Source: Escherichia coli
GTDB taxonomy: Bacteria; Pseudomonadota; Gammaproteobacteria; Enterobacterales; Enterobacteriaceae
Direction: 5' to 3' (one strand)
Length of the DNA stretch: 64,000 nt
NCBI RefSeq assembly: GCF_965641715.1
Contig: NZ_OZ282453.1
A program made the translations under genes and the position numbers. This document shows positions 3 through 48,172 of this stretch, one piece after another. Within the stretch, counting starts at the first letter, position 1, and each line of letters begins with the position of its first letter. Below the pieces are notes generated by a model. That model was not told where the DNA came from. It worked only from the letters and a program-made list of their open reading frames with translations, and made no database searches.

Positions 3-1547
<1,545 letters not shown>

Positions 1548-1554
1548 TAGGCCA

Positions 1555-1705
1555 GCACCGATGCCTGATGCGACGCTTGACGCGTCTTATCAGGCCTACG
1601 TATTTCCTGCAATTTATTGAATTTGCACAAATTTGTAGGCTGGATAAGGCGTTCACGCCGCATCCGGCATCTGGGCTCGATTGCCTGACGCGTCTGTTAT
1701 TTCCC
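1555..1705. repeat. REP/BIME cluster (about three palindromic units) in the convergent dtpD-phr junction
   Basis: Imperfect GC-rich palindromes such as gcctgatgcgacgc...gcgtcttatcaggcctac and ggataaggcgttcacgccgcatccggca, typical of E. coli REP elements. Confidence 0.7.
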
Positions 1706-3115
1706 CTTCCGCGCCGCCTCATACGCTGCCAACGTTTGTACTCTCGCCTCTTTGTGCTCGACTATCGGTTGCGGATAATCCAGCTTCACACCTGCTTTCT
1801 GCGCCCACTTCCACGGCTCATGCACCGATTTCCCCGGTACATTGCGTAGTTCCGGTAGCCACTGGCGGATAAACTCGCCTTCGCGGTCAAATTTCTCGCC
1901 CTGGGTTGTCGGGTTGAAAATACGAAAATACGGCGCTGCATCAGTACCCGTAGAAGCCGCCCACTGCCAGCCACCGTTATTAGCTGCCAAATCACCATCA
2001 ATCAGCTGCGACATGAAATATCGCTCGCCTTCGCGCCAGTCGATCAATAAATCTTTCACCAGAAAACTGGCTGTAATCATCCGTAGCCGGTTATGCATCC
2101 AGCCAGTGCTATTAAGCTGACGCATGGCAGCATCGACAATCGGGTATCCCGTTTTGCCTTCCTGCCAGGCCTGTAAATGTGCGGGATTGCTCTGCCACTG
2201 CACACGATCCGTCCAGGCAATAAACGGACAATGTTTACACAACGAGGGGTGATACGTTATCAGGTGACGGTAAAACTCGCGCCAGATCAGCTCACTAAGC
2301 CAGACACTACCGGCCCCACCGTCCAGCGCCTGCGGCTGTTCCGCCAACAAGCGATGCAAACACTGGCGAGGCGATAACCCGCCCGTTGCCAGGCTGGCGG
2401 ACAAACGACTGGTGCCTTCCACTGCCGGAAAATCTCGTTGTTGCTCATATTCTCCGGCACCGTTCTGGCAAAACTGGCGTAATTGCGCAATCGCCGCTTT
2501 TTCTTCCACCGGGAAATGCGCAGTATCGAAAGACTGACGAGGATAATTCAGCGTAATGGATGGCGCGGGCTTTATCGATCCGCTACTACGAACTTTTGGT
2601 GCAGCGACGCACTCCGGCATCCCTTCCCGCAGCCGTTTCAGCCAGGCATTCTTAAAAGGCGTAAAGACTTTGTACATCTCATGATTGCCGGTCATCACCG
2701 CGCCAGGCGGCAGGATCACGCTGTCATCAAATCCTTCACACACCACGTTACGCAGCGTTCTCTCAACCTGCACATCCCGCGCCCGCTCATTCACCTCATA
2801 CTGATAGTTATAAAAAAGATGAGTAACGCTGTTTTCCGCGCACACCTGTTTAACTATTTCGACGCTGGCGGCAAAGTCATCCACTTCACGGAACAATAAA
2901 GGAATGCCTTTTTCCGCCAGCGCGATTTGTAGCCCGTTCAGTTGAGCATTGATAAGTTCAGCCTGACGCGGCGACATATTATGCGCCGCCCACTGGCGTG
3001 GTGTAGCGATATACAACGCCAGCACGCGTGCAGACGAATTGCGGCAGGCGGCAGCCAGCGCGAGATTATCATGCAGACGTAAATCCTGGCGAAACCAGAC
3101 CAGATGGGTAGTCAT
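1697..3115 (-). CDS. phr: deoxyribodipyrimidine photolyase (472 aa)
   Basis: ORF begins MTTHLVWFRQDLRLHDN and contains the FAD-binding C-terminal photolyase motifs; its start overlaps the ybgA stop by 4 nt. Confidence 0.95.
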   Translation of the reverse strand: MTTHLVWFRQDLRLHDNLALAAACRNSSARVLALYIATPRQWAAHNMSPRQAELINAQLNGLQIALAEKGIPLLFREVDDFAASVEIVKQVCAENSVTHLFYNYQYEVNERARDVQVERTLRNVVCEGFDDSVILPPGAVMTGNHEMYKVFTPFKNAWLKRLREGMPECVAAPKVRSSGSIKPAPSITLNYPRQSFDTAHFPVEEKAAIAQLRQFCQNGAGEYEQQRDFPAVEGTSRLSASLATGGLSPRQCLHRLLAEQPQALDGGAGSVWLSELIWREFYRHLITYHPSLCKHCPFIAWTDRVQWQSNPAHLQAWQEGKTGYPIVDAAMRQLNSTGWMHNRLRMITASFLVKDLLIDWREGERYFMSQLIDGDLAANNGGWQWAASTGTDAAPYFRIFNPTTQGEKFDREGEFIRQWLPELRNVPGKSVHEPWKWAQKAGVKLDYPQPIVEHKEARVQTLAAYEAARKGK

Positions 3116-3621
3116 AAAACTCCTGAATGGCGCAAGTTAATCACACGCGGCCAAAGTTCGAAATAACGCTGCCCTGAAAGCCAGGCGTCAGGATAAAGCG
3201 CCATATAGTGTTTGATACGCATCAGCGGCGCAAGAAGCGGTTGCTCGCCACGGCGATAACTGTCGATAAGCGCCGCCAGCTGCTGGCGTTCTGTGGCATC
3301 AATATGCGGGCGAAAATACCCCTGAACGTGCATCAAAACGTTGGTGTGATCGCGCGGGTTGGCGGGATGAGAAAGCAAAACAATTACGCGTTGGCGGTAC
3401 TGGCTGTAAAAATCATCCAGATTTTGCCACTGGTGAATATCAGCCACGAACGGGCCAAGTTTGCGGTATTCCGGCTGGGAATGAGCCAGAAAGACGAGTT
3501 TATAGCGGCTGTGATAATCGAGAAGCGCCCCGCGCGTTAAGCCATGTTCTTTCAGTCGATGTAACTCATGAAGGGCGAAGATACGGATTAGGGTGCTGTC
3601 ATCAAATCGTTGCTGATTCAT
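3112..3621 (-). CDS. ybgA: DUF1722 protein, cotranscribed with phr (169 aa from internal Met; track ORF extends to 3711)
   Basis: Start chosen at MNQQRFDDSTL to match the recognised YbgA length; 4-nt overlap with the phr start. Confidence 0.8.
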   Translation of the reverse strand: MNQQRFDDSTLIRIFALHELHRLKEHGLTRGALLDYHSRYKLVFLAHSQPEYRKLGPFVADIHQWQNLDDFYSQYRQRVIVLLSHPANPRDHTNVLMHVQGYFRPHIDATERQQLAALIDSYRRGEQPLLAPLMRIKHYMALYPDAWLSGQRYFELWPRVINLRHSGVL

Positions 3622-3721
3622 TACTGCTCCTGAACGGTTTACAGGAGTAAGTGTAGACGGCGAAAAGAAAAAACCGCCAGCGTTTCCACTAGCGGTTTTC
3701 AATGTATTCAAAACTCAGCAA

Positions 3722-3928
3722 TCAGTAAAAATCACCGGTTGCCTTTTCGGCCTGATCCATCCAAACCGGTTTATCGCTGGTTTTCGACCAGACGCGATGC
3801 AGGTAGCTGTAAAAGCGGGCGCGGTCTTTCCAGAAAAGCATGAAAGGCAGCGCCAGAACGCCCGCTGCAACCGCATAAGTACGGCGTAAAAAGATAAGCC
3901 ATGCAGGATATTCTCTGTAGAGTTCCAT
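3722..3928 (-). CDS. ybfA: small DUF2517 membrane-associated protein (68 aa)
   Basis: 68-aa [19 protein letters not shown]... recognised as YbfA, divergent from kdpF. Confidence 0.8.
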
Positions 3929-4134
3929 ACTTTTCTCCCCCTTTTGTATCTACCCGGTGAATGGCACCGGAAAATGAATTTGTTTATCTGATGAAAATAG
4001 TACCGCCTTTTGTGTAATTTCACTACTCATCCGACCACTTATTTTTGCTTATTGATGGTTTATTTACATTCACCCTGTAATTAAGTTACACAAAAGTTAA
4101 ATTAATACTAAACATTAGTTAAATCATGGCTTTT

Positions 4135-4168
4135 GCCATTTTTATACTTTTTTTACACCCCGTCCGCA
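4135..4168 (+). promoter_or_regulatory. kdpFABC promoter-proximal KdpE operator (T-rich site)
   Basis: Sequence ttttatacttttttacaccccgtccg about 70 bp upstream of the kdpF start resembles the known KdpE-binding site; lies in an AT-rich divergent intergenic region. Confidence 0.5.
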
Positions 4169-4239
4169 GATTTTTGCGAAATCTTTGCAGCCAGAATTCT
4201 ACCCTTCCGGTATCACTTTTAGGCCACTGGAGGTGCACT

Positions 4240-4329
4240 GTGAGTGCAGGCGTGATAGCCGGCGTGTTGCTGGTGTTTTTATTACTGGGTTATCTGGTTT
4301 ATGCCCTGATCAATGCGGAGGCATTCTGA
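4240..4329 (+). CDS. kdpF: K+-transporting ATPase small subunit KdpF (29 aa, GTG start)
   Basis: In-frame GTG gives [29 protein letters not shown]; stop overlaps the kdpA ATG by 1 nt. Confidence 0.8.
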
Positions 4330-8654: not shown

Positions 8655-11331
8655 CGAACCCTTACGTCCCGACCCCGATCGTCTGCTGGAACAAACTGCC
8701 GCGCCGCATCGGGGGAAGCTGAAAGTTTTCTTCGGTGCCTGCGCAGGCGTCGGGAAGACCTGGGCGATGCTGGCAGAAGCCCAGCGACTGCGGGCGCAAG
8801 GGCTGGATATTGTGGTTGGCGTGGTAGAAACCCACGGGCGGAAAGATACCGCCGCCATGCTGGAAGGGCTGGCTGTTCTGCCGCCAAAACGCCTGGCGTA
8901 CCGTGGGCGGCACATCAGCGAGTTTGATCTCGATGCCGCCCTCGCCCGCCGTCCGGCGCTGATCTTAATGGACGAACTGGCGCACAGTAATGCGCCAGGT
9001 TCTCGTCATCCTAAACGCTGGCAGGATATCGAAGAACTGCTGGAAGCTGGCATTGATGTTTTCACAACCGTCAACGTTCAGCATCTGGAAAGTCTGAATG
9101 ATGTGGTCAGCGGCGTCACCGGAATTCAGGTACGGGAAACCGTGCCCGATCCTTTTTTCGATGCCGCCGACGACGTGGTGCTGGTGGACTTGCCCCCGGA
9201 CGATCTGCGCCAGCGGCTGAAAGAAGGCAAAGTCTATATTGCCGGGCAGGCGGAGCGCGCCATTGAACATTTTTTCCGCAAAGGCAATCTGATCGCCCTG
9301 CGCGAACTGGCACTGCGCCGTACTGCCGATCGCGTTGATGAGCAAATGCGCGCCTGGCGGGGGCATCCTGGCGAAGAGAAAGTGTGGCACACGCGCGACG
9401 CGATCCTTTTATGCATCGGCCATAACACCGGCAGCGAAAAACTGGTCCGCGCGGCGGCGCGGCTGGCGTCACGGCTGGGGAGCGTCTGGCACGCGGTGTA
9501 TGTTGAAACCCCTGCCCTGCATCGCTTACCGGAGAAAAAACGTCGGGCAATTCTCAGCGCCTTACGTCTGGCGCAGGAGCTGGGCGCGGAGACGGCAACA
9601 CTTTCTGATCCAGCGGAAGAGAAAGCGGTAGTGCGTTATGCCCGTGAACATAATCTCGGCAAGATTATTCTCGGTCGCCCAGCCTCGCGCCGCTGGTGGC
9701 GTCGGGAAACGTTTGCTGACCGACTGGCGCGCATCGCCCCCGATCTCGATCAGGTGCTGGTCGCGCTTGATGAACCACCCGCCCGCACGATTAACAACGC
9801 GCCGGATAGCCGCTCTTTTAAAGACAAGTGGCGGGTACAGATTCAGGGATGCGTGGTTGCCGCCGCGTTATGCGCCGTTATCACCTTAATTGCCATGCAG
9901 TGGCTGATGGCGTTTGATGCCGCCAACCTGGTGATGCTGTATCTACTTGGCGTGGTGGTGGTGGCGCTATTTTATGGACGCTGGCCTTCGGTGGTTGCTA
10001 CCGTCATTAATGTGGTGAGTTTCGATCTCTTTTTTATCGCCCCACGCGGCACGCTCGCCGTCTCTGATGTGCAATATCTGCTGACCTTCGCGGTGATGTT
10101 AACCGTCGGGCTGGTGATCGGGAACCTTACTGCTGGCGTGCGTTATCAGGCGCGGGTAGCCCGTTACCGCGAACAACGCACACGGCACTTATATGAAATG
10201 TCGAAAGCTCTGGCTGTGGGCCGCAGTCCGCAGGACATCGCCGCCACCAGCGAACAATTTATTGCCTCCACGTTTCATGCCCGCAGTCAGGTGTTGTTGC
10301 CCGATGACAACGGTAAATTGCAGCCGTTAACACATCCGCAAGGAATGACGCCGTGGGACGATGCCATCGCGCAGTGGAGTTTTGATAAAGGCCTGCCTGC
10401 GGGTGCGGGCACCGACACGTTACCCGGCGTGCCGTACCAGATTTTGCCGTTAAAAAGCGGTGAGAAAACCTACGGGCTGGTGGTGGTGGAACCGGGGAAT
10501 CTGCGTCAGTTGATGATCCCGGAACAGCAGCGCCTGCTGGAGACGTTTACGCTGTTAGTCGCCAATGCGCTTGAGCGGCTGACGCTGACCGCCAGCGAAG
10601 AACAGGCGCGGATGGCAAGCGAACGTGAACAGATCCGCAACGCCCTGCTGGCGGCGCTTTCGCATGATTTACGCACTCCGCTTACGGTGCTGTTTGGTCA
10701 GGCAGAAATCTTAACGCTCGATCTGGCAAGCGAAGGATCACCCCACGCCCGCCAGGCCAGCGAGATTCGTCAGCATGTGCTGAACACTACCCGACTGGTG
10801 AATAATCTACTGGATATGGCGCGAATTCAGTCCGGCGGCTTTAATTTGAAGAAAGAGTGGTTAACGCTGGAAGAAGTAGTCGGCAGCGCGCTGCAAATGC
10901 TGGAACCGGGTTTATCGTCGCCCATCAATCTTTCTCTGCCAGAACCGCTGACCTTAATCCACGTTGACGGGCCACTCTTTGAACGGGTGCTGATTAATCT
11001 GCTGGAGAACGCGGTGAAATATGCGGGTGCGCAGGCCGAAATTGGTATCGATGCCCACGTTGAGGGCGAAAATCTACAACTGGATGTCTGGGATAACGGC
11101 CCCGGTCTTCCGCCAGGCCAGGAGCAGACGATATTTGATAAGTTTGCTCGCGGGAATAAAGAGTCGGCAGTACCGGGGGTAGGGCTTGGACTGGCAATTT
11201 GTCGGGCGATAGTGGATGTACACGGGGGCACTATTACCGCGTTCAACCGACCGGAAGGTGGTGCCTGTTTTCGTGTTACACTTCCCCAGCAAACTGCCCC
11301 TGAACTTGAAGAATTTCATGAGGATATGTGA
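8647..11331 (+). CDS. kdpD: sensor histidine kinase KdpD (894 aa)
   Basis: Starts [14 protein letters not shown]; N-terminal KdpD domain with P-loop GACAGVGKT, four TM helices and a C-terminal HisKA/HATPase region; 8-nt overlap with kdpC. Confidence 0.93.
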
Positions 11332-12005
11332 CAAACGTTCTGATTGTTGAAGATGAACAGGCTATTCGTCGCTTTCTGCGCACGGCGCTGGAGGGCGACG
11401 GGATGCGCGTCTATGAGGCCGAAACGCTGCAACGCGGCTTGCTGGAAGCGGCTACCCGTAAGCCAGATTTGATTATTCTCGATCTCGGCCTGCCCGATGG
11501 TGATGGGATTGAGTTTATCCGCGACCTGCGCCAGTGGAGCGCGGTGCCGGTGATTGTGCTTTCCGCACGCAGCGAAGAGAGCGACAAAATCGCCGCGCTG
11601 GATGCCGGAGCGGATGATTATCTAAGTAAGCCGTTTGGCATTGGCGAATTGCAGGCCCGTCTGCGCGTCGCTTTACGCCGCCACTCCGCCACCGCCGCGC
11701 CCGATCCGCTGGTGAAATTTTCCGATGTTACCGTCGATTTAGCCGCCCGCGTGATTCACCGGGGTGAGGAAGAGGTGCATCTCACCCCGATTGAGTTTCG
11801 CCTGCTGGCAGTGCTGCTCAACAACGCCGGAAAAGTGCTCACCCAGCGCCAACTCCTTAACCAGGTGTGGGGGCCAAACGCGGTCGAACACAGTCATTAT
11901 TTGCGTATTTATATGGGGCATCTGCGACAAAAACTGGAGCAGGATCCCGCCCGCCCCCGCCATTTCATTACCGAAACCGGTATTGGGTATCGGTTTATGC
12001 TTTAG
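11328..12005 (+). CDS. kdpE: OmpR-family response regulator KdpE (225 aa)
   Basis: Receiver domain plus winged-helix output domain; 4-nt overlap with the kdpD stop. Confidence 0.95.
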   Translation: MTNVLIVEDEQAIRRFLRTALEGDGMRVYEAETLQRGLLEAATRKPDLIILDLGLPDGDGIEFIRDLRQWSAVPVIVLSARSEESDKIAALDAGADDYLSKPFGIGELQARLRVALRRHSATAAPDPLVKFSDVTVDLAARVIHRGEEEVHLTPIEFRLLAVLLNNAGKVLTQRQLLNQVWGPNAVEHSHYLRIYMGHLRQKLEQDPARPRHFITETGIGYRFML

Positions 12006-12296
12006 GGGTTGAAATGCCGGATGCGGCGTAAACGCCTTATCCAGCCTACTCATCGTCCCGTAGGCATGATAAGACGCGTCAGCGTCGCATCAGGCATGGC
12101 TCTGTGAATAACGTCGGCAAAAACTGGAAAAAGACCCCGCCCTCGCCATTTCATTACCGAAACCGGTATTGGGTATCGGTTTATGCTTTAGGGGCTGACT
12201 TGCCGGATGCGGCGTGAACGCCTTATCCAGCCTACTCATCGTCCCGTAGGCATGATAAGACGCGTCAGCGTCGCATCAGGCATTGGCACTCATGGC
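11928..12296. repeat. tandem imperfect direct repeat of about 170 bp (kdpE 3' end plus REP), two copies about 18 bp apart
   Basis: Copy A (about 11928-12099) spans the last about 78 bp of kdpE plus a REP; copy B (about 12118-12296) repeats it at roughly 90% identity with a 1-nt indel that shifts the frame of the kdpE-like part. Confidence 0.7.
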
Positions 12297-12304
12297 TAAA
12301 TATT

Positions 12305-22082: not shown

Positions 22083-22301
22083 CGTGGATTCCTCAAAGCG
22101 TAAACAACGTATAACGGCGTATGATCTTATAAGCGGGACAGGCTGACAACTGTTAGTTAGCGAAAAAGTGGTTTTGCGTAAGATATTGGGGCGTTTTCTG
22201 CGCTACAGCCAGCAGATCCTCGCGCTGGAGACGTAAGGCCAAACGTCGCCAGCCTGACGCGTTTATTAAATTTCCGGATGAGCTGGCCGCAGAGTCGTAG
22301 A

Positions 22302-23063
22302 TTAATCCGCTATGATTAAACGCGTCGACAAGGACGCCAGCGTTTTGCGCGTCTGCCCATCAAGCTGATTATCCGTAATAATCTCTGTCAGTTCATTAAG
22401 ATGCGCGATATTAAACAGCGACCATGAACCGTATTTTGAGCTGTCAGCCAGGAGAATTTTGCGCGAAGCATGCGCGATAAGATCGCGTTTTAGTGCGGCT
22501 TTCTCTTCCGTGGGTGCTGTAATACCCTTTTCAAGATCCCAGCTGTTACAGCTTAAAAATGCCACGTCCGGCCAGGTATTTTGCAGCATTTTACGACCAT
22601 GTTCGCCAATGCAGGACTGGCTGGAGTCGTCGATACGTCCGCCGATAATCGTCACTTCAATCTGCTTGAATTCAGCCAAAAAAAGCGCGATATGCAGGTC
22701 GCTGGTGATCACGCGAAGCGGTAAATGGGTAATCTGCCGCGCAAGTTCAATCATTGTCGTACCGGCATCAAGGACGACGGAATCCCCCGCTTTGACCATT
22801 GACGCCGCTGCGCTGGCGATGGCATGTTTTTCCGCCAGGCTGCGCTGCATTTTCTCATGGGTAGTCGGTTGGGTAGGAATAAACCGGTTGAGGGTCACAC
22901 CGCCGTGTGTACGGCTGATAACACCCTGCTCATCGAGTTTTATCAGGTCTCGACGAATCGTGGCCGGCGACGCATTGGTTACCGCCACCAGCTCATCAAC
23001 GGTGACCAGATTATGGCTTTTCAGGTAATCCATGATCTGCTCTAACCGGTTATATCCCTTCAT
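22302..23063 (-). CDS. DeoR/GlpR-family transcriptional regulator (253 aa)
   Basis: N-terminal HTH ([30 protein letters not shown]) and C-terminal DeoR-type sugar-phosphate-binding domain; last gene of a three-gene leftward operon. Confidence 0.8.
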
Positions 23064-23064
23064 T

Positions 23065-24051
23065 TTATTCTCGCGAAATCTGCATTGCTAACTGGATGGA
23101 AACTGCCATGCTCTCAGACTTGGCTTTTCCTGTCCAGGCAATATCAAATGCGGTGCCGTGGTCGGCAGAAGTACGAATAAATGGCAACCCGGCGGTGATA
23201 TTCACCCCATCATAAAATCCAAGCAGTTTTAAAGGGATATGCCCCTGATCGTGGTACATAGCCACCACCATATCGAATAGCCCTTCATGGCACTGCATGA
23301 ACACGGTATCTGGCGGGCACGGGCCAGTAACATCAATATCTTCGGCCTGCATTGCTTCAATCGCAGGTGCGATAATCTCGATTTCCTCAGTGCCGAATAA
23401 ACCGTGTTCCCCTGCATGTGGATTTACACCCGCCACGGCAATACGCGGACGCTCAATACCGACACGTTTCAGGAAGTGGTTCGCAACTCGAATAACCGTT
23501 TTGACCCTTTCACCGTTCAATGTATCCAGGAATTTACGCAGTGAGATGTGAGTCGAAATATGGATAACCTTGAGCTTATCGGTATAGAGCACCATCGCGT
23601 ACTCTTTGCTGCCGGTAAGATGGGCCAGCAATTCCGTATGGCCAGGATAGTTATGCCCGCCAAGATGCAGCGCTTCTTTATTCAACGGCGCAGTGGCTAT
23701 GGCTTTCACCTCGCCTGATAAGGCCAGGGCCGTTGCACGTTTGATACAGCGATACGCTAAATCGCCTGCCGCAGCCTGTACCACTCCGGGTGTCAGCGCA
23801 TCGGGGTTAGCCAGCGGCTCATCCATCACGTTAATCACGCCGGGAGCAAAGTGGGCGTCGCACACCTTTTGAATGACGCGTAACTCTGTCTGCGGCGTGA
23901 TATTCATCGCCATAATACGTCGTAACGTGCGCACACAGCCCACCACCACCACCGGGGCACCAGCAAGCCCGGCTTCGCTCAGGGATTTAATAATGATCTC
24001 CGGGCCAATACCCGCCGGATCGCCCATCGTTACCGCAATAATATTATTCAC
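23065..24051 (-). CDS. PdxA-family NAD-dependent dehydrogenase, PdxA2-like (328 aa)
   Basis: Whole-length resemblance to 4-hydroxythreonine-4-phosphate dehydrogenase ([23 protein letters not shown]); starts 8 nt inside the upstream kinase gene. Confidence 0.75.
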
Positions 24052-25282
24052 TACGCTTCTCCTCGATAAAATTCAGAACCTGATGCAACGTGGTCTCATC
24101 GCCAAACCCACCGGCTTTCGTCATCACCGAACGGGACCAGACGCCGCCCAGAAAGTGACCGTATGGAACGCACTGCGCCACCTTCCCCGTAATACGAAAC
24201 CCGGTCGCACCTAACGCACTGGCTGTTGCCATTGCGACATCGCCACCAGAGAGATAAAGGGCATCAGGGGTGACACGAAGCAGAACTTGCCGGGTAAGTT
24301 CGCCAAGAAACCGGCAAATTTTTTCCCCAAGCGCAGCGCGACTCATCTGCCAACGCTGGCAAAGGGTGTCGATATGGTGCCTTGCTTCAGAATCGGTACA
24401 GGTGTGGACAATGCAGTGGTCCCCTTTCTGTAAGGCCTGCACAATACGCGCGTCATAGCCCCTGGCGTTGCCTGCCAGAATGTGTTCAACATCGACGTAT
24501 ATCTGTGTGATACGTGAGTGTGAATGCAGTGTGGCGATCTGCCGTTGAGCGATTTCGCTCATTGAACCAATAATGGCCAGCACGGTGGGTGGCGGCATAA
24601 TCGCCGAGCGCCGGGCAACGGCATCACAAATACCAGCGGAGCCGACCAGCAGCAGCGGTTGTTTAGCCTGCATCACAGCGGCAGCGATGCAATCCAGGTC
24701 GCTGTCCGTCTGCGCATCCATCACCCCAATCCACGGTTGCTCACGAGACAAATGGCTGAGCTCAGAAACTGTAACGGGCTGGCATGGAATGGCCGTCTGC
24801 AACCGAATGATGTCCGCAATTCGTGCGCTCATTACCGGGGTTTTTGGATCGCTGGCAAACTCGGTTTCCGTTAGCCGCACGCCGTTTACCCGACACTCAC
24901 CGTCCACCGTGGTCCTTCCCACCTGGGGAAATGCGGGGGCAACCACTGCGCCCGTTATGCCGCATGCCTGCATCAGGGCTTCAATTTCTGCGCCGATATT
25001 CCCTCGCAGCGTGGAATCTATCTTTTTAATCATGAGCGGCGGGTTATTCGCCAGAGGGAGATGACTCATCAGCGAGGTCATTTTCATCGCGGCCTGCTTA
25101 GGATCCATCGCCCGACTGTCGCTATTAATCACCCATACGCTTGCATCACCGTGATAAGGCGTTGCAAAGGCCACATCAACCGTATGTCCCACCTGCGCCA
25201 GGCTTACTCCTGCGTCGTTGGCCCCTGTGAAATCATCGGCAACGACGAGAATGCTCGGCTTAGTGATTCCCTTTTCCATCAT
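24044..25282 (-). CDS. four-carbon acid-sugar kinase family protein, DUF1537/OtnK-DtnK-like (about 412 aa)
   Basis: N-terminal hallmark ILVVADDFTGANDAGV; start set at the ATGATG doublet preceded by GGAG (track ORF runs to a TTG at 25321). Confidence 0.7.
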   Translation of the reverse strand: MMEKGITKPSILVVADDFTGANDAGVSLAQVGHTVDVAFATPYHGDASVWVINSDSRAMDPKQAAMKMTSLMSHLPLANNPPLMIKKIDSTLRGNIGAEIEALMQACGITGAVVAPAFPQVGRTTVDGECRVNGVRLTETEFASDPKTPVMSARIADIIRLQTAIPCQPVTVSELSHLSREQPWIGVMDAQTDSDLDCIAAAVMQAKQPLLLVGSAGICDAVARRSAIMPPPTVLAIIGSMSEIAQRQIATLHSHSRITQIYVDVEHILAGNARGYDARIVQALQKGDHCIVHTCTDSEARHHIDTLCQRWQMSRAALGEKICRFLGELTRQVLLRVTPDALYLSGGDVAMATASALGATGFRITGKVAQCVPYGHFLGGVWSRSVMTKAGGFGDETTLHQVLNFIEEKRSE

Positions 25283-25448
25283 CACTCCAGGTTGTTTTAT
25301 GATGACAATGATTATATTCAATCACGATTGATTAAATGTGAGCAAGTTCAAGTTATTAATCACTCGAATAAATTATAAAATTAGGCCATGTTACGTAGAC
25401 AACGGTATTTTGAATGATTGATTTCAATCACGAGAAGAGAGGTTATTT
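25283..25448. promoter_or_regulatory. divergent promoter/operator region of the island
   Basis: AT-rich 166-bp spacer between divergent operons containing TCAATCAC-GATTGATT (25318-25333) and its permuted inverted-repeat form GATTGATT-TCAATCAC (25416-25432). Confidence 0.5.
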
Positions 25449-26606
25449 GTGGTAATTATCAATAGCACGATACTGAGCGGCGCAGGCGCTATCCCTTCCC
25501 TGACGTCGCTCTTACCCGGCGTCAGAAAATTGCTGCTGGTCACAGACAGCAATATTGCGCAGCTTAACGGAGTGCAGCAGATTCGCGCCTTACTGGAAAA
25601 GCACTGCCCGCAGGTGAGCGTTATCGATAATGTGCCTGCAGAGCCTACGCATCATGATGTGCGCCAGCAAATGGCGACCCTCGGCAACGCGTCGTTTGAT
25701 GTAGTAGTGGGCGTCGGCGGCGGCAGCGTGCTGGATGTCGCAAAACTGTTGTCGGTGCTTTGTCACCCCGATTCACCGGGGCTGGATGCGCTGCTTGCCG
25801 GTGAAAAACCGACGCAGCGGGTGCAATCATGGTTGATTCCTACAACCGCCGGTACCGGCTCAGAAGCCACGCCAAATGCGATTCTGGCGATCCCTGAACA
25901 AAGCACGAAGGTGGGTATTATTTCTCCGGTGCTGCTACCGGATTATGTGGCACTTTTCCCCGAGCTGACCACCAGCATGCCCGCACATATTGCAGCGTCT
26001 ACGGGCATTGATGCGCTTTGTCACTTACTGGAGTGTTTTACCGCGACCGTGGCAAATCCGGTCAGCGATAACGCGGCGCTAACCGGGTTAAGTAAGCTTT
26101 TCCGGCATATTCAACCCGCCGTGAACGATCCTCAGGATCTGCGCGCAAAACTGGAAATGCTGTGGGCGTCTTACTATGGCGGCGTAGCGATAACCCATGC
26201 GGGCACGCACCTGGTCCATGCGCTCTCCTACCCGTTAGGCGGCAAATATCACCTGCCGCACGGTGTGGCGAATGCCATCTTGCTGGCACCGTGCATGGCG
26301 GTTGTTCGCCCCTGGGCGGTCGAGAAATTTGCCCAGGTCTGGGATTGCATTCCCGATGCGGATACATCCTTGAGCGCGGAAGAGAAATCTCACGCTCTGG
26401 TGGCCTGGCTACAGGCATTAGTCAATCAACTCAAGCTGCCCAACAATCTCGCGGATCTTGGCGTACCGCCAGATGATATTACGTCTCTTAGCGCGGCGGC
26501 ACTGAACGTGAAGCGCCTGATGAACAATTCCCCCTGCCAACTGAATCAGCGGGACGTGCAGGCCATTTACCAAACGCTGTTTCCGCAACATCAATTTAAG
26601 GAGTAA
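25449..26606 (+). CDS. iron-containing (group III) alcohol dehydrogenase (385 aa, GTG start)
   Basis: GGGS NAD(P)-binding motif (VVGVGGGSVLDVAKL) and His-rich metal site (HALSYPLGGKYHLPHG); RBS agagagg upstream. Confidence 0.75.
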   Translation: MVIINSTILSGAGAIPSLTSLLPGVRKLLLVTDSNIAQLNGVQQIRALLEKHCPQVSVIDNVPAEPTHHDVRQQMATLGNASFDVVVGVGGGSVLDVAKLLSVLCHPDSPGLDALLAGEKPTQRVQSWLIPTTAGTGSEATPNAILAIPEQSTKVGIISPVLLPDYVALFPELTTSMPAHIAASTGIDALCHLLECFTATVANPVSDNAALTGLSKLFRHIQPAVNDPQDLRAKLEMLWASYYGGVAITHAGTHLVHALSYPLGGKYHLPHGVANAILLAPCMAVVRPWAVEKFAQVWDCIPDADTSLSAEEKSHALVAWLQALVNQLKLPNNLADLGVPPDDITSLSAAALNVKRLMNNSPCQLNQRDVQAIYQTLFPQHQFKE

Positions 26607-26609
26607 ATC

Positions 26610-27497
26610 ATGCCAAAAACCATTGAAGGTGTATTAACCGCCATCGTCACCCCGTTTACCGCGACCGGCGTCCTGAATCTCCCGGCGTTAAAAGTGCAGG
26701 TTAATCGCCAACTGGAAGCCGGTAACGCGATTTTTTGCGGCGGCACCAACGGCGAGTTTTTTGTGTTGAACGAACAGGAGAAGCTCAGCGTTACGCAAAC
26801 CTGCGTGGATGAAGTGGCTGGCCGCGCACCGGTCGTGGCGCACATTGGTGAGATCTCGACGCGCGAAACCATTCGTCTGGGTCAGCAGATTGAAAAACTG
26901 GGCGTTGATGCGGTATCGGTCATTACCCCGTACTTTGTACCGCTAAAACAGGAAGAGCTGATTGCCCATTACACCGCAATTGCCGACGCACTAAGCATTC
27001 CCATGTTTCTCTATAACATCCCGGCCCGCACCGGCAATACGATTCAGCCGGAAACCGCGCGCGCTCTGGCGTCGCATCCCAATATCATTGGGATTAAAGA
27101 CAGCGCCGGAAGCTACGAAAGCCTGAAGGGTTTTCTCGATGCTGTGCGCAACATTGACGGCTTTAATGTGCTCAACGGCCCGGATTCGCTGATCCATAAA
27201 GGGTTTGTCGAGGGGTGTTCAGCCTGTATTTCCGGGCTCGCCAACGTCGCGCCGCGAGAAATCAATGCCATCTGGTCTCGCTTCCATGCCGGTGATATTG
27301 AAGGATCGTATCAGGCACAGGAGAGTGTGACTGGCCTGCGTACCGATCTTTATAAAGTAGCATTCTCCCCAGCTGCGGTGAAAAAAGCGTTGCAGCTTAT
27401 GGGGCATGATGTTGGTGATAGCCGCTACGCGGTTAATTTCACGCCTGAACAGATCAGCGAGATTCAACAAATTATTCGTCATTATCACATTAATTAA
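26610..27497 (+). CDS. DapA/NanA-family Schiff-base aldolase/lyase (295 aa)
   Basis: GVLTAIVTPF N-terminal motif, GGTNGEF, and Schiff-base lysine context IIGIKDSAG; starts 3 nt after the ADH stop. Confidence 0.75.
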   Translation: MPKTIEGVLTAIVTPFTATGVLNLPALKVQVNRQLEAGNAIFCGGTNGEFFVLNEQEKLSVTQTCVDEVAGRAPVVAHIGEISTRETIRLGQQIEKLGVDAVSVITPYFVPLKQEELIAHYTAIADALSIPMFLYNIPARTGNTIQPETARALASHPNIIGIKDSAGSYESLKGFLDAVRNIDGFNVLNGPDSLIHKGFVEGCSACISGLANVAPREINAIWSRFHAGDIEGSYQAQESVTGLRTDLYKVAFSPAAVKKALQLMGHDVGDSRYAVNFTPEQISEIQQIIRHYHIN

Positions 27498-27556
27498 ATT
27501 AACTCTATTATCCAGCCCGCTATAACGTATAGATAAAGAGAATAAAGGATTACCCC

Positions 27557-28315
27557 ATGTTTTTGTGGTTTATGCAGCCAGATATCTGGCTCACTTTAAT
27601 TACCCTCACCTTTCTGGAAATTATTCTCGGGGTGGATAATATTATTTTTCTTTCACTGGTGGTGGCAAAACTTCCGTTATCACAACAAAATATGGCGCGT
27701 AAACTGGGTTTAAGCTGCGCGATGATTATGCGGATATTATTGCTGATATCCATTGCGTGGCTTTCACATATTACCCAGCCGCTTTTTACCGTGCTGGCGC
27801 TGGAGATTTCGTTCCGCACGTTGATTCTACTCGGGGGCGGGCTGTTCCTGATTTATAAAGCGATACAGGAGATACGCGAAGAGTTGTCGCCCGCGCAGGA
27901 AGACGCGCATGGCAGCGGGTCGCGGCAGCTGTCGCTGTGCGGTGCTATCGTACAGATAATGCTGCTGGATATTGTGTTCAGCCTGGACTCGGTGATCACC
28001 GCCGTCGGCCTTTCTCAGCATATATTTATTATGATTGCTGCCGTCATGATTGCCGTTGGCATCATGATGTTTGCGGCGAAAACCATTGGTGACTTCGTGA
28101 ACGCGACGCCATCGATAAAAATACTGGCGTTAACCTTTTTATTATTTGTCGGCGTATTGTTGGTTGCCGATAGCCTCAATATTCATATTGCCAAAGAGTA
28201 TCTCTACTTCGCGATATTTTTCTCATTAAGCGTGGAGACACTCAATATTTTCCGTGAAAGAAGACATAAAAAAGTTTCGACATCGATCGAAACGCATGAA
28301 TCGAACTCGCATTAA
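27557..28315 (+). CDS. TerC-family integral membrane protein (252 aa)
   Basis: About seven hydrophobic helices with two DN/DS-type motifs (LGVDNIIFLSL, FSLDSVITAVG) typical of TerC/YgdQ-like proteins. Confidence 0.55.
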   Translation: MFLWFMQPDIWLTLITLTFLEIILGVDNIIFLSLVVAKLPLSQQNMARKLGLSCAMIMRILLLISIAWLSHITQPLFTVLALEISFRTLILLGGGLFLIYKAIQEIREELSPAQEDAHGSGSRQLSLCGAIVQIMLLDIVFSLDSVITAVGLSQHIFIMIAAVMIAVGIMMFAAKTIGDFVNATPSIKILALTFLLFVGVLLVADSLNIHIAKEYLYFAIFFSLSVETLNIFRERRHKKVSTSIETHESNSH

Positions 28316-28350
28316 TAAATCTATTACCGACTTTAAGATGGAGTCTAACT

Positions 28351-29520
28351 ATGTCTGTAGCTCTTATTCGTGACGGCGTCATCCGTCCGTCCGAAAATGA
28401 TTCGCATGTGCTTACCGCCATGCTGCCCTCGTCCTGCCCGCAAAACCACGCGGCGAATATTCTGCCTTTGCCGGATGGCGCGTTAATGTGCGTCTGGTTT
28501 GCGGGAACGCAGGAAGGTATTGCCGATATTTCCGTCTGGGGATCGCGGCTGCCCGCTGGCGGAACGCAGTGGAGCGATGCGGTCAAACTGTCCCACGATG
28601 ACACGCGTTCAGAGCAGAACCCGGTACTGTTTCTCGCACCGGATAACGTGCTGTGGCTGCTATGGACCGCACAAATATCCGGTAATCAGGACACCGCCAT
28701 CGTCCGCTACCGTAAGTCAGACGACCTCGGACAAACCTGGGGCGAGATTGCCACGCTGCTCGATAAACCCGGCACGTTCATTCGCCAGCCGATCACGGTG
28801 CTTGATAACGGCAACTGGCTGCTGCCCGTCTTTTATTGCCGTACCCAACCCGGTGAAAAATGGGTCGGCAATGATGATATCAGCGCAGTGAAAATTTCCG
28901 CTGACGGTGGTCACTCATGGCGCGATGTCGAGGTGCCGCAAAGTCTCGGCTGCGTTCATATGAATATCACAATGCTGCACGACGGTACGTTGGCTGCTCT
29001 CTTTCGCAGCCGTTGGGCAGACAACATCTATATCAGCCATTCTGCGGACCACGGCGAGAGCTGGTCGGTGCCGCAAGCAACCGAACTGCCCAACAACAAT
29101 TCGTCTATTCAGGTGACGACGCTTGCCAGCGGTGAGCTGGCGCTGGTGTACAACGCAATGAGTGCGGCAGGCGCAGTAGAACGTCGCGCGTCGCTGTATG
29201 ACGAAATCGACGATGGCGACGACAGTCGCAAAGAACCCACAGCCGTTGGACGCTCCGCTTTCTGGGGTGCCCCGCGCGCGCCGATGACGGTAGCGATTTC
29301 TGCCGATGGCGGGAAAAGCTGGCCGTGGCGGCGCAATCTCGATGAAGGCGATGGCTACTGCATGACCAACAATTCGCTGGAAAAGCTAAATCGCGAGTTC
29401 TCCTACCTCAGTATCAAACAAAGCCCGGACGGTACGCTGCATATCGCTTACACCTGGTGGCGTCAGGCCATCAAGTACGTGCGCATCTCCCCCGAGTGGG
29501 TTAAGGGGCAGGCATTATGA
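28351..29520 (+). CDS. BNR/Asp-box repeat sialidase-like protein, predicted cytoplasmic (389 aa)
   Basis: Four S-x-D-x-G-x-[TS]-W Asp-boxes (SDDLGQTW, SADGGHSW, SADHGESW, SADGGKSW); N-terminal IRP (FRIP-like); no signal peptide. Confidence 0.75.
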   Translation: MSVALIRDGVIRPSENDSHVLTAMLPSSCPQNHAANILPLPDGALMCVWFAGTQEGIADISVWGSRLPAGGTQWSDAVKLSHDDTRSEQNPVLFLAPDNVLWLLWTAQISGNQDTAIVRYRKSDDLGQTWGEIATLLDKPGTFIRQPITVLDNGNWLLPVFYCRTQPGEKWVGNDDISAVKISADGGHSWRDVEVPQSLGCVHMNITMLHDGTLAALFRSRWADNIYISHSADHGESWSVPQATELPNNNSSIQVTTLASGELALVYNAMSAAGAVERRASLYDEIDDGDDSRKEPTAVGRSAFWGAPRAPMTVAISADGGKSWPWRRNLDEGDGYCMTNNSLEKLNREFSYLSIKQSPDGTLHIAYTWWRQAIKYVRISPEWVKGQAL

Positions 29521-29987
29521 TTATCGGGAATCTCAACCATTTGTCACAGGCGGGGCTTCCCGCTGGCGTGAAAAATATTCTGCTGCGCCCGGAATGTTCG
29601 TTACGGGCGTTATCCGCCAGAGAGGACGGTCGCTGGCAACTGGAAGGATGCCGGTGGTTCTGCACGCTGGGCCTTTCAGACACGCAGCCCGCCGATCTCC
29701 GGCATACGGAGTATCACCATCTGTGGGCCGATATTCAGGTGGTGATTGCCGGTTGTGAGGGCATTAATGCGGGGACGCGGCCCGTAGCGCAGGAAAGCGA
29801 TGAAGAACGTAAGCCCGATCTGTTTATCGCCCCATCCCCTGAAAACAGTGTCGCAATCACCTTACACCCCGGTGATTTCGCCGTCTTTATGCCAGAAGAA
29901 CCCCATCAGGCGCTGTGCGCGGTTGGCGCGGCCACGTCAGTACGTAAAGCGGTCTTTAAGGTACCGCGCGACATGCTGGAAGCCTAA
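29517..29987 (+). CDS. YhcH/YjgK/YiaL (DUF386) family protein (156 aa)
   Basis: Size and N-terminal pattern (MIIGNLNHLSQAGLP...) typical of the DUF386 family found in sialic-acid and beta-galactoside operons; ATGA overlap with the BNR gene. Confidence 0.65.
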   Translation: MIIGNLNHLSQAGLPAGVKNILLRPECSLRALSAREDGRWQLEGCRWFCTLGLSDTQPADLRHTEYHHLWADIQVVIAGCEGINAGTRPVAQESDEERKPDLFIAPSPENSVAITLHPGDFAVFMPEEPHQALCAVGAATSVRKAVFKVPRDMLEA

Positions 29988-30000
29988 AAGGAGAGAAAAA

Positions 30001-31281
30001 ATGACAATGGAAATGATCCTGGCATTAGGAATACTGGTCCTGATGATCGTGCTGATCATGTCGGACAAAATGCCCTTTGGCGCACCGCCACTGCTTGCGT
30101 GTTTATTGCTGGTTGTCTCGGGGCTGTCGACGGTTCAACAGGCTTTTGCCGGATTCGTCAATCCAAGCGTGGTGATGATTGCAGGGTTTATGGTGGTGAT
30201 GGCTGCGCTACAAAAAACCCGGCTTATCAGCAACGTTAAATCTGCGATGATAAGCCTGGTCAATAAAGGCAGTTACCGCAGTTATGGGCTGTTGTTAGTC
30301 ATCGTTATGCTGGGCGCCAGTCTTGCCGGCACCGGCGCGACGGGTTATTACGTGCTGATTCTGTCTCTGGTATCCACCATTCCGTACAGTAAAAAGCTAC
30401 CAACATCGAAATTGATGATGCCACTGGGATTTGCCACCAACCATCCGCTTCTTCCTATCAATCTCGCGCTTCTCTTTGGCGTCACGGCGACCGTACTCGA
30501 AACAGCCGGTTTTCATCAGGAGATTTCGATGGGGCGCTTTGCGCTGGTGAATCTCGTCATGTCAGCGGCTTTTCTGGCGTGGAGTCTGATTGCCTACCGT
30601 TTTCTTCCGGATCATCCCATTGCGGATGCTTCCGAGGATGCGCTGGCCGCACGCGAAGAAACGTTTAACGCCCTTCCTGCCTGGAAAGAGTATTGCACCA
30701 TCGCCGCATTCGCCGTCAGCGTTATCGGCATGATGCTGATGAATATGCTGGGTAATATCGCCTTCGTTATTCCAGGCCTTGCGGGTGCGTTTGTTCTGAT
30801 GATCGATGTACTGGACTTTAAAGAAGTTCGCGATCATATGGGGGCACCGGTCATTTTAATGATGGCGGGGGTGATCGGTGTGGCTGATGCGCTGGCTGGC
30901 ACCGGCTTTACGGCAATGGTAGGCGATGCCGTTGCAGGTGTGCTCGGGTCTGGCGTCTCACCGTTTGTATTTATTGTCGCCTTTGCTTTACTTACCAGTA
31001 CCTGCGCCACCTTCACGGGTTCGAATATGGGGTCAGTCTATATTTTTGCCCCCATCGCCATTGCCGCCTGTACTAGCCTTGGGCTTAACCCGACCGCTGC
31101 CGCGATTGCGGTGGTGATTTCTGGCTGGAATGGCGGCTATATGCCTATTGACGGAATGCCAGCCATGATCCTCGGAATGGGGAAATACAAACTTCCCGAA
31201 TTCTGGGTGTTCTCTGTACCAATGTATCTCATCCGCATTCTGGCGCTTTGTGCAGGCGCTGTTTTTATCTTCCCAATGTAA
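30001..31281 (+). CDS. anion permease of the ion-transporter superfamily, GntP/CitMHS-like (426 aa)
   Basis: ATG at 30001 preceded by aaaggagag; 10-12 hydrophobic segments with two-repeat architecture; the track ORF (29800) carries a spurious upstream extension. Confidence 0.6.
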   Translation: MTMEMILALGILVLMIVLIMSDKMPFGAPPLLACLLLVVSGLSTVQQAFAGFVNPSVVMIAGFMVVMAALQKTRLISNVKSAMISLVNKGSYRSYGLLLVIVMLGASLAGTGATGYYVLILSLVSTIPYSKKLPTSKLMMPLGFATNHPLLPINLALLFGVTATVLETAGFHQEISMGRFALVNLVMSAAFLAWSLIAYRFLPDHPIADASEDALAAREETFNALPAWKEYCTIAAFAVSVIGMMLMNMLGNIAFVIPGLAGAFVLMIDVLDFKEVRDHMGAPVILMMAGVIGVADALAGTGFTAMVGDAVAGVLGSGVSPFVFIVAFALLTSTCATFTGSNMGSVYIFAPIAIAACTSLGLNPTAAAIAVVISGWNGGYMPIDGMPAMILGMGKYKLPEFWVFSVPMYLIRILALCAGAVFIFPM

Positions 31282-31290
31282 TCTCAGACA

Positions 31291-37687: not shown

Positions 37688-37722
37688 TAGCAACCACGTC
37701 TCAGGACGTGGTTTCTTATTTT
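37688..37722 (+). terminator. intrinsic terminator of nagBACD
   Basis: aaccacgtctcaggacgtggtttcttattttt: 9-bp perfect stem plus T-run. Confidence 0.75.
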
Positions 37723-37942
37723 TACCCATCATTAAAATCATCCCATTCAATAAAACCCGCCAAAAATTATCGATCCATCAATAAATACATCACCGTACCC
37801 TCCTCTTTTTCACAAATCAGCAATCACCATTACGTTTTTTATTTTTTCACCGCCAAATCGCTTGCGCATAGTGCTGCTTTGCGGCATTTTTTTAAACAAG
37901 CAAACACAACAAGCAACAAATACCAGGTTAACGGAGAAGGTT

Positions 37943-47824: not shown

Positions 47825-48172
47825 GGATTTGGCATCAGTGCGTTATCCGGTTAACAAAATTCCCCTATCCAACTTTGGCACATCTATTGCTTTGTTATAC
47901 AAGGCAAAGCTTGAACCAGCATCAGTACAACCCGGTTGCACCACAGCAATTCACCGGTAGCACCAAAAGAGTGCATTTTAAGAATTTTGCTTCGGAATGG
48001 TGCGGCGCACCTCCCAAATATAAACAATAAAACAGCAATATCTTTACATTTAGCCAAACTAAATGTTACCTAACAGGCACAACACTGCACAATAAAGTTG
48101 CAGATGATAACAACACAAACACTCACAACGGGTATCCATGCGTTCTTAACGCAGAAGATAAAGGAGTTGGAT

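Follow-up and report, generated by a model that had tools for sequence, protein, structure and literature searches.

The closest described counterpart of the locus considered here is the RhsC locus of Escherichia coli K-12 (b0699-b0706; rhs 'position 5', kdpA-phr). A preliminary description of the present locus had placed the rhsC element, with its linked ybf genes, in the ybfA-ybgA interval of K-12, and the MG1655 annotation agrees: adjacency of the two genes, looked for in that genome, is not found there, ybfA ending at 729,340 and ybgA starting at 739,001, 9,660 bp apart, with seven annotated genes in between, namely rhsC, ybfB, ybfO', ybfC, ybfQ, ybfL' and ybfD, of which ybfO and ybfL are pseudogenes. 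The K-12 island is composite, with 62% GC in the rhsC core and 42% GC in the remainder, and it is made up of a GC-rich rhs core gene with a toxin tip, ybfB, an orphan tip together with ybfC, and H-repeat (transposase-like) genes. The distribution of Rhs elements in the ECOR collection was reportedly covered by Hill et al. in 1995.

The site was treated as rhs position 5 by Jackson et al. (2009), who reported the element from E. albertii and as varying between E. coli strains, described one pathogenic group as being without the clade I rhs expansion, and took its presence in E. albertii as a sign that the ancestor of E. coli had already carried an element at this position. The group so described is that of B2 strains such as UTI89. 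The Rhs region b0699-b0706 was also listed as a variable locus by Archer et al. (2011). An empty RhsC site represents one state of a commonplace polymorphism, catalogued before, in the presence or absence of a well-known element, and the additions made here are modest, consisting of the base-exact pre-insertion sequence, the evidence for an ancestral empty allele, and the placing of the insertion relative to a putative terminator and a likely promoter. The current understanding of Rhs elements is unchanged and the practical value is small, the junction being a clean marker that a strain is not K-12-like at the RhsC locus.

Gene order and the ybfA-ybgA spacer

The window, that is, the whole 64-kb stretch of E. 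coli DNA that was analysed, carries in its first 12 kb, in this order, dtpD, phr, ybgA, ybfA, kdpF, kdpA, kdpB, kdpC, kdpD and kdpE; this is the kdp-phr region of E. coli, which by synteny comparison lies in the window in reverse orientation relative to K-12. The dtpD gene (66-1547, plus strand) is followed on the minus strand by phr (1697..3115), which encodes deoxyribodipyrimidine photolyase and is the downstream member of the ybgA-phr pair, and by ybgA (3112..3621), which encodes a 169-aa protein (MNQQRFDD...) of the DUF1722/YbgA family and overlaps the phr start with its 3' end. Both genes are supported by the list of open reading frames and by annotation. The ybfA gene (3722..3928, minus strand; 68 aa, YbfA family) is an open reading frame annotated under this name in matching RefSeq genomes and in K-12, and the kdp genes from kdpF to kdpE that come after it are on the plus strand.

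The start codon of ybgA is the complement of CAT at 3619-3621, on the minus strand, and the stop codon of ybfA occupies 3722-3724, so that the spacer between them covers positions 3622-3721. The two genes had been described as adjacent and about 100 bp apart; the open reading frames and the annotation give exactly 100 bp, and an identical gap is found in the RefSeq annotation of the closest complete genomes. Read along the minus strand, the spacer would consist of a rho-independent terminator of ybfA, a filler of about 8 nt, the TCTACACTTA motif, and a short ybgA leader with a Shine-Dalgarno sequence. Its flanks are the ybfA and ybgA orthologues in the context kdp-ybfA-ybgA-phr-dtpD, as at an unoccupied RhsC site, and the segment 3622-3721 is very probably the intact, ancestral ybfA-ybgA intergenic spacer, in other words an RhsC site without its element.

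Comparison with the K-12 element and its junctions

Comparison with K-12 by blastn gave two blocks on the minus strand, a left one in which window positions 4200-3668 align to K-12 up to 729,394 (98.3% identity) and a right one in which positions 3659-3100 align to K-12 from 738,963 (97.0%), so that collinearity with K-12 extends on either side to the ends of the element (window 3668 and 3659). The proposal of an empty Rhs site is borne out by this alignment and by the junction sequences, in which 9,568 bp of K-12 take the place of the 8 bp CTTTTCGC at the insertion point (window 3667-3660, minus strand). The window junction reads GCTGGCGGTTTTTT, then CTTTTCGC, then CGTCTACACTTACTCCTG and onward to the ATG of ybgA; at the K-12 left junction GCTGGCGGTTTTTT is followed directly by GTATCAGGAAG, and at the K-12 right junction CATTTCTCAA is followed directly by CGTCTACACTTACTCCTG and, further on, the ATG. 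The K-12 insertion starts directly after the terminator T-run and ends 38 bp 5' of the ybgA ATG. The 9.6-kb element sits exactly between the T-run and TCTACACTTA in K-12, as in some two thirds of E. coli, replacing the 8-nt filler.

The junction sequences at the ends of the K-12 island contain no target-site duplication, and the terminal repeats are at chance level (longest direct repeat 8, longest inverted repeat 9, shuffle mean 8.3); an insertion of the transposon or IS type was rejected on these two grounds. The pre-insertion sequence shows that the element replaced 8 bp between the putative terminator and the candidate -10, without hallmarks of transposition.

By blastn and tblastn, no match to the DNA of the K-12 island or to any of its seven gene products was obtained anywhere in the 64-kb window, and the interval between ybfA and ybgA is free of Rhs core, tip, immunity and H-repeat sequences. 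An Rhs element of the RhsA-B-C-F subfamily (clade I), recognised by a GC-rich core ORF of some 3.7 kb with a variable tip and a further small ORF behind it, is present in K-12 and absent from the window. The two loci are therefore alike in chromosomal position and in the flanking ybfA and ybgA genes, and differ in that the window is without the rhs core, the tips, ybfB and ybfC, and the H-repeat genes. The flanks are 97-98.8% identical to K-12 and there are several other indels, which makes the backbone a non-K-12 one, as the preliminary description had held.

The putative ybfA terminator

A terminator scan and folding place a putative intrinsic terminator of ybfA, made up of a stem and a T-run, at 3663..3700 on the minus strand. 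Its hairpin, which had been noted earlier as a small hairpin with a T-run, lies at 3700-3669 on the coding strand of ybfA, begins 21 nt past the ybfA stop codon, has the sequence GAAAACCGCTAGTGG-AAAC-GCTGGCGGTTTTT with a GC-rich stem of 14 pairs and a 4-nt GAAA loop, and is followed by TCTTTT. These are the features of rho-independent terminators, namely a GC-rich stem-loop and a T-run just past the stop codon on the coding strand, although the T-run of the window is an interrupted one (TTTTTT C TTTT). The 100-nt spacer folds at -32.7 kcal/mol, compared with -21.1 +/- 3.2 kcal/mol for shuffled sequences (z = -3.6), and only one of 200 shuffles folded as well.

The stem is shared by K-12 and UTI89 with G-C to G-U changes only, the hairpin is retained at the K-12 left junction, and a hairpin with a T-run is found at the equivalent place in four genera, Escherichia, Citrobacter, Enterobacter and Trabulsiella, the last three having GC-rich stems that differ in sequence from that of Escherichia. 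We infer that the hairpin and T-run of the spacer would act as the intrinsic terminator of ybfA.

The candidate ybgA-phr promoter and the ybgA leader

The TCTACACTTA motif (3648..3657, minus strand) lies 27-36 nt upstream of the ybgA ATG and starts 3 bp from the K-12 insertion boundary. It is nearly invariant in the empty Escherichia, Citrobacter and Enterobacter alleles, with one A-for-C change in an Escherichia representative (L007), and is also present in occupied Escherichia alleles. The motif fits a -10 element of the sigma-S type, in which C at -13 is followed by TAYACT, and stands at a suitable distance from ybgA. In a bioRxiv study, ybgAp1 is among 169 sigma-38 promoters analysed, and in O157:H7 Sakai the induction of ybgA together with phrB has been described for early stationary phase.

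A strict sigma-70 consensus scan of positions 3400-4300 returned no promoter, and a sigma-70 promoter in the spacer was set aside as a candidate on this basis. The proposed -10 rests instead on conservation and on the literature, from which it seems rather likely that TCTACACTTA is the -10 of a sigma-S-dependent ybgA-phr promoter. If it is, the K-12 insertion stops 3 bp short of this -10 on the upstream side, and the DNA upstream of the promoter would be wholly different in occupied and empty strains, with the ybfA terminator preceding it in empty strains and the end of the element in occupied ones.

Between the candidate -10 and the start codon, the sequence and its fold contain an inverted repeat, CTCCTG-N9-CAGGAG (3627..3647, minus strand), within which lies AGGAG, the Shine-Dalgarno sequence of ybgA, at 5 nt from the ATG. 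The CTCCTG/CAGGAG stem is kept in the Escherichia alleles, with a variable loop, and RNAalifold on ten sequences from three genera returned no consensus pairs in the ybgA leader. A conserved regulatory structure in the leader was dropped as a candidate, the stem being confined to Escherichia.

Outgroups and the ancestral state

A scan with YbgA over one genome per GTDB species yielded 21 loci. The gene order kdpA-ybfA-ybgA-phr is found in five to six Citrobacter species, one Enterobacter and one Trabulsiella, with a ybfA-ybgA gap of 94-97 bp where measured (L010, L015 and L024), and in Dickeya, Erwinia, Pragia and Budvicia a YbgA homologue comes directly after ybfA, 109-328 bp away. Across the insertion point, each base of the empty Escherichia spacers has its counterpart in Citrobacter, Enterobacter and Trabulsiella, the alignment running through the terminator, the T-run, about 9 nt with a CG-rich end, TCTACACTTA and a Shine-Dalgarno-like stretch to the start codon. 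The window and these outgroups are alike in having adjacent genes, a hairpin with a T-run, a filler of about 9 nt, TCTACACTTA (in Trabulsiella TTTACACTTA) and, ahead of the start codon, a purine-rich stretch of the Shine-Dalgarno type, which is AAGGAG in Citrobacter and Enterobacter. They differ in the YbgA protein, which is only 58-68% identical, and in the start of Citrobacter YbgA, which lies about 20 codons earlier than that of E. coli YbgA.

The 8-bp filler of the window aligns with its counterparts in other empty alleles and in Citrobacter, and two more species-level representatives of Escherichia are empty (L007 and L008), with fillers TATGTACGC and GTTTTCGC that are homologous to it. 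The empty ybfA-ybgA allele is the ancestral enterobacterial state and not a deletion scar, because the outgroups have adjacent ybfA, ybgA and phr with the same spacer architecture, and because deletion of the element could not regenerate filler bases shared with them.

The YbgA homologues of Dickeya, Erwinia, Pragia and Budvicia (L018 and L020-L023, around 9,400-10,500) are long proteins of about 265-365 aa with an extra N-terminal domain (IPVGISACLLG..VRFDGGHKR) that we take to be DUF523-like, and the E. coli YbgA (169 aa, DUF1722) matches only their C-terminal half. Citrobacter YbgA (L010, 9,920-10,489) retains a vestigial MSKRIPVGIRTC N-terminus.

Homology to the backbone resumes at one and the same base, with CGTCTACAC, in every occupied allele examined, these being from K-12, E. 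albertii, E. whittamii and two further Escherichia sp. Given this identical right junction, one old RhsC insertion within Escherichia would be the simplest reading, and it is in agreement with the distribution given by Jackson et al. (2009). Three draft assemblies, of E. albertii NBRC 107761 and two Escherichia sp., break off in element-derived sequence at 123-2,152 bp from ybgA on its upstream side (L004 1-2152, with an Rhs core fragment; L005 1-397; L006 1-123), as would be expected if repeated Rhs or H-repeat DNA had broken the assemblies.

Frequency and relationships of the empty allele

The frequency of the empty junction was determined in 5,426 complete E. coli genomes, a junction being counted as uninterrupted when one place covered at least 80% of a 701-bp query. 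By this measure 1,310 genomes (24%) have an uninterrupted ybfA-ybgA junction, a count that takes in at least one genome with IS1 at the site. The IS1 copy is inside the query-matched ybgA-ybfA region in the complete genome of DETEC-S586 (NZ_CP116074.1 3344319-3345778, hit H8). The K-12-type left junction, in which the ybfA terminator is joined to the rhsC upstream region, is present in 3,695 of the 5,426 genomes and the K-12-type right junction in 3,212, and an RhsC-type core occurs anywhere in the genome in 3,903, leaving 1,523 genomes with no such core. With the empty junction in 1,310 genomes, the empty site does not mark one particular or rare lineage.

The closest allele to that of the window is carried by PapRG-04-4, from a Gambian baboon (99.6% over 701 bp), and at least 60 further genomes match the window allele at 97.9-98.6%, O145:H28 strains among them; the idea that the allele might be near-unique is ruled out by these matches at 97.9% or better. 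The empty junction of B2 strains, represented by UTI89, agrees with that of the window in gene order, in the 100-bp spacer and in architecture, but its identity is only about 91% over the 701-bp query, 92.4% in ybgA and 93.3% in phr, and by its sequence the window allele belongs to a haplotype group other than that of UTI89.

The left flank of the window is 98.8% identical to that of K-12, which is occupied, and 97.0% identical to that of UTI89, which is empty, and the corresponding ybgA values are 96.9% and 92.4%. The window flanks being nearer to the occupied K-12 allele than to the empty UTI89 allele, the empty alleles do not form one clean lineage. K-12 and UTI89 are 93.1% identical in ybgA and 91.5% in phr. 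The ybgA and phr alleles are unusually divergent within E. coli, to a degree similar to the distance to E. albertii. A sliding comparison gave patchy identity along 7 kb, from 88 to 100% per 250 bp, and the possibility that divergence is a block confined to ybgA-phr was ruled out, the patchiness running across the whole 7 kb and not forming one block tied to the junction. The pattern suggests mosaic recombination beside the Rhs site, and recombination has evidently shuffled the alleles of the region.

Alternative explanations for the empty site

The alternative that deserves most attention, although it is unlikely, is a secondary loss of RhsC from an occupied ancestor of this strain, whether by deletion or through homologous replacement with the empty allele of another strain. 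Occupied alleles with an identical right junction in E. albertii, E. whittamii and other Escherichia speak for such a loss, as do the ancestral occupancy inferred by Jackson et al. (2009), the greater resemblance of the window flanks to occupied K-12-type alleles than to the B2 empty allele, and the patchwork of identities in the region, which fits frequent recombination. The two routes fare differently, in that a simple deletion cannot recreate the 8-nt filler that aligns with other empty alleles and with Citrobacter, and neither a scar nor a remnant of the element is present, while allelic replacement would leave exactly the observed sequence; even then the allele itself would be ancestral. 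The reading that we infer for the window lineage is that it never carried RhsC, rather than that it regained an empty allele by recombination. If the E. coli ancestor was occupied, as published, the empty E. coli alleles call for a polymorphism of long standing or for allelic replacement; the empty allele has to have survived beside the occupied one or to have come back through recombination, and the published inference is qualified for this reason. An old, Escherichia-wide polymorphism of Rhs-occupied and empty alleles at ybfA-ybgA, under which expression of the photolyase operon would differ systematically between Rhs-plus and Rhs-minus strains, can be put forward only tentatively and is rather improbable as a whole.

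The remaining alternatives concern the assembly and the spacer itself. That some other functional element in the spacer, such as a small RNA, a riboswitch or a recombinase attachment site, explains why Rhs landed there would be in line with the identical right junction in all the occupied alleles examined, with the left junction common to 3,695 genomes, and with a spacer that folds better than its shuffles. Yet the fold is accounted for by the terminator and by the hairpin at the Shine-Dalgarno sequence, the sole match in an Rfam scan over positions 3400-4300 (E <= 1) was to a miRNA and due to chance, which rules out another RNA in the spacer as a candidate, the island ends are without a target-site duplication or terminal repeats above chance, and identical junctions are most simply the product of one ancient insertion that was inherited and spread by recombination in the flanks; such an element is very improbable. 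Even less credence is due to an assembly artefact, in which a collapsed or skipped Rhs repeat would have joined ybfA to ybgA: Rhs cores are indeed multi-copy (a median of 6 places per genome having any) and the drafts of other Escherichia do break just upstream of ybgA (L004-L006), but repeats usually break assemblies and do not make junctions with 8 bases that match the ancestral spacer, and the junction is present in 1,310 complete genomes, one of them at 99.6% over 701 bp.

Other differences from K-12

Several further differences from K-12 were observed elsewhere in the window. The interval from kdpE to ybfP consists in the window of 297 bp of REP/BIME-like repeats (12004-12300), in place of the 5,147 bp of K-12, which hold speFL-speF-potE and the pseudogenes ybfI and ybfG; with speFL-speF-potE missing there, the strain is without the inducible ornithine decarboxylase/putrescine antiporter operon at this site. 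The adjoining ybfP is only 92.5% identical to that of K-12, and A30, the genome with the best match, is contiguous with the window across 12004-12300. At 37714-37743, an indel between umpH and asnB measures 30 bp in the window and 170 bp in K-12, and at 48069-48073 the window is without the IS5D copy that K-12 carries between gltI and lnt (687,851-689,045).

The largest of these differences lies between glnS and nagE, where the window has a 9.1-kb island (22159-31289) and K-12 has 46 bp. The island codes for a PdxA-like dehydrogenase, an Fe-alcohol dehydrogenase, a four-carbon acid sugar kinase (SBD_N/NBD_C) and a DHDPS/NanA-like lyase, for a DeoR regulator and a CitMHS transporter, and for one protein each of the TerC, YhcH/DUF386 and BNR sialidase-like kinds, and by this gene content it looks like a catabolic island of the sugar-acid or sialic-acid type.
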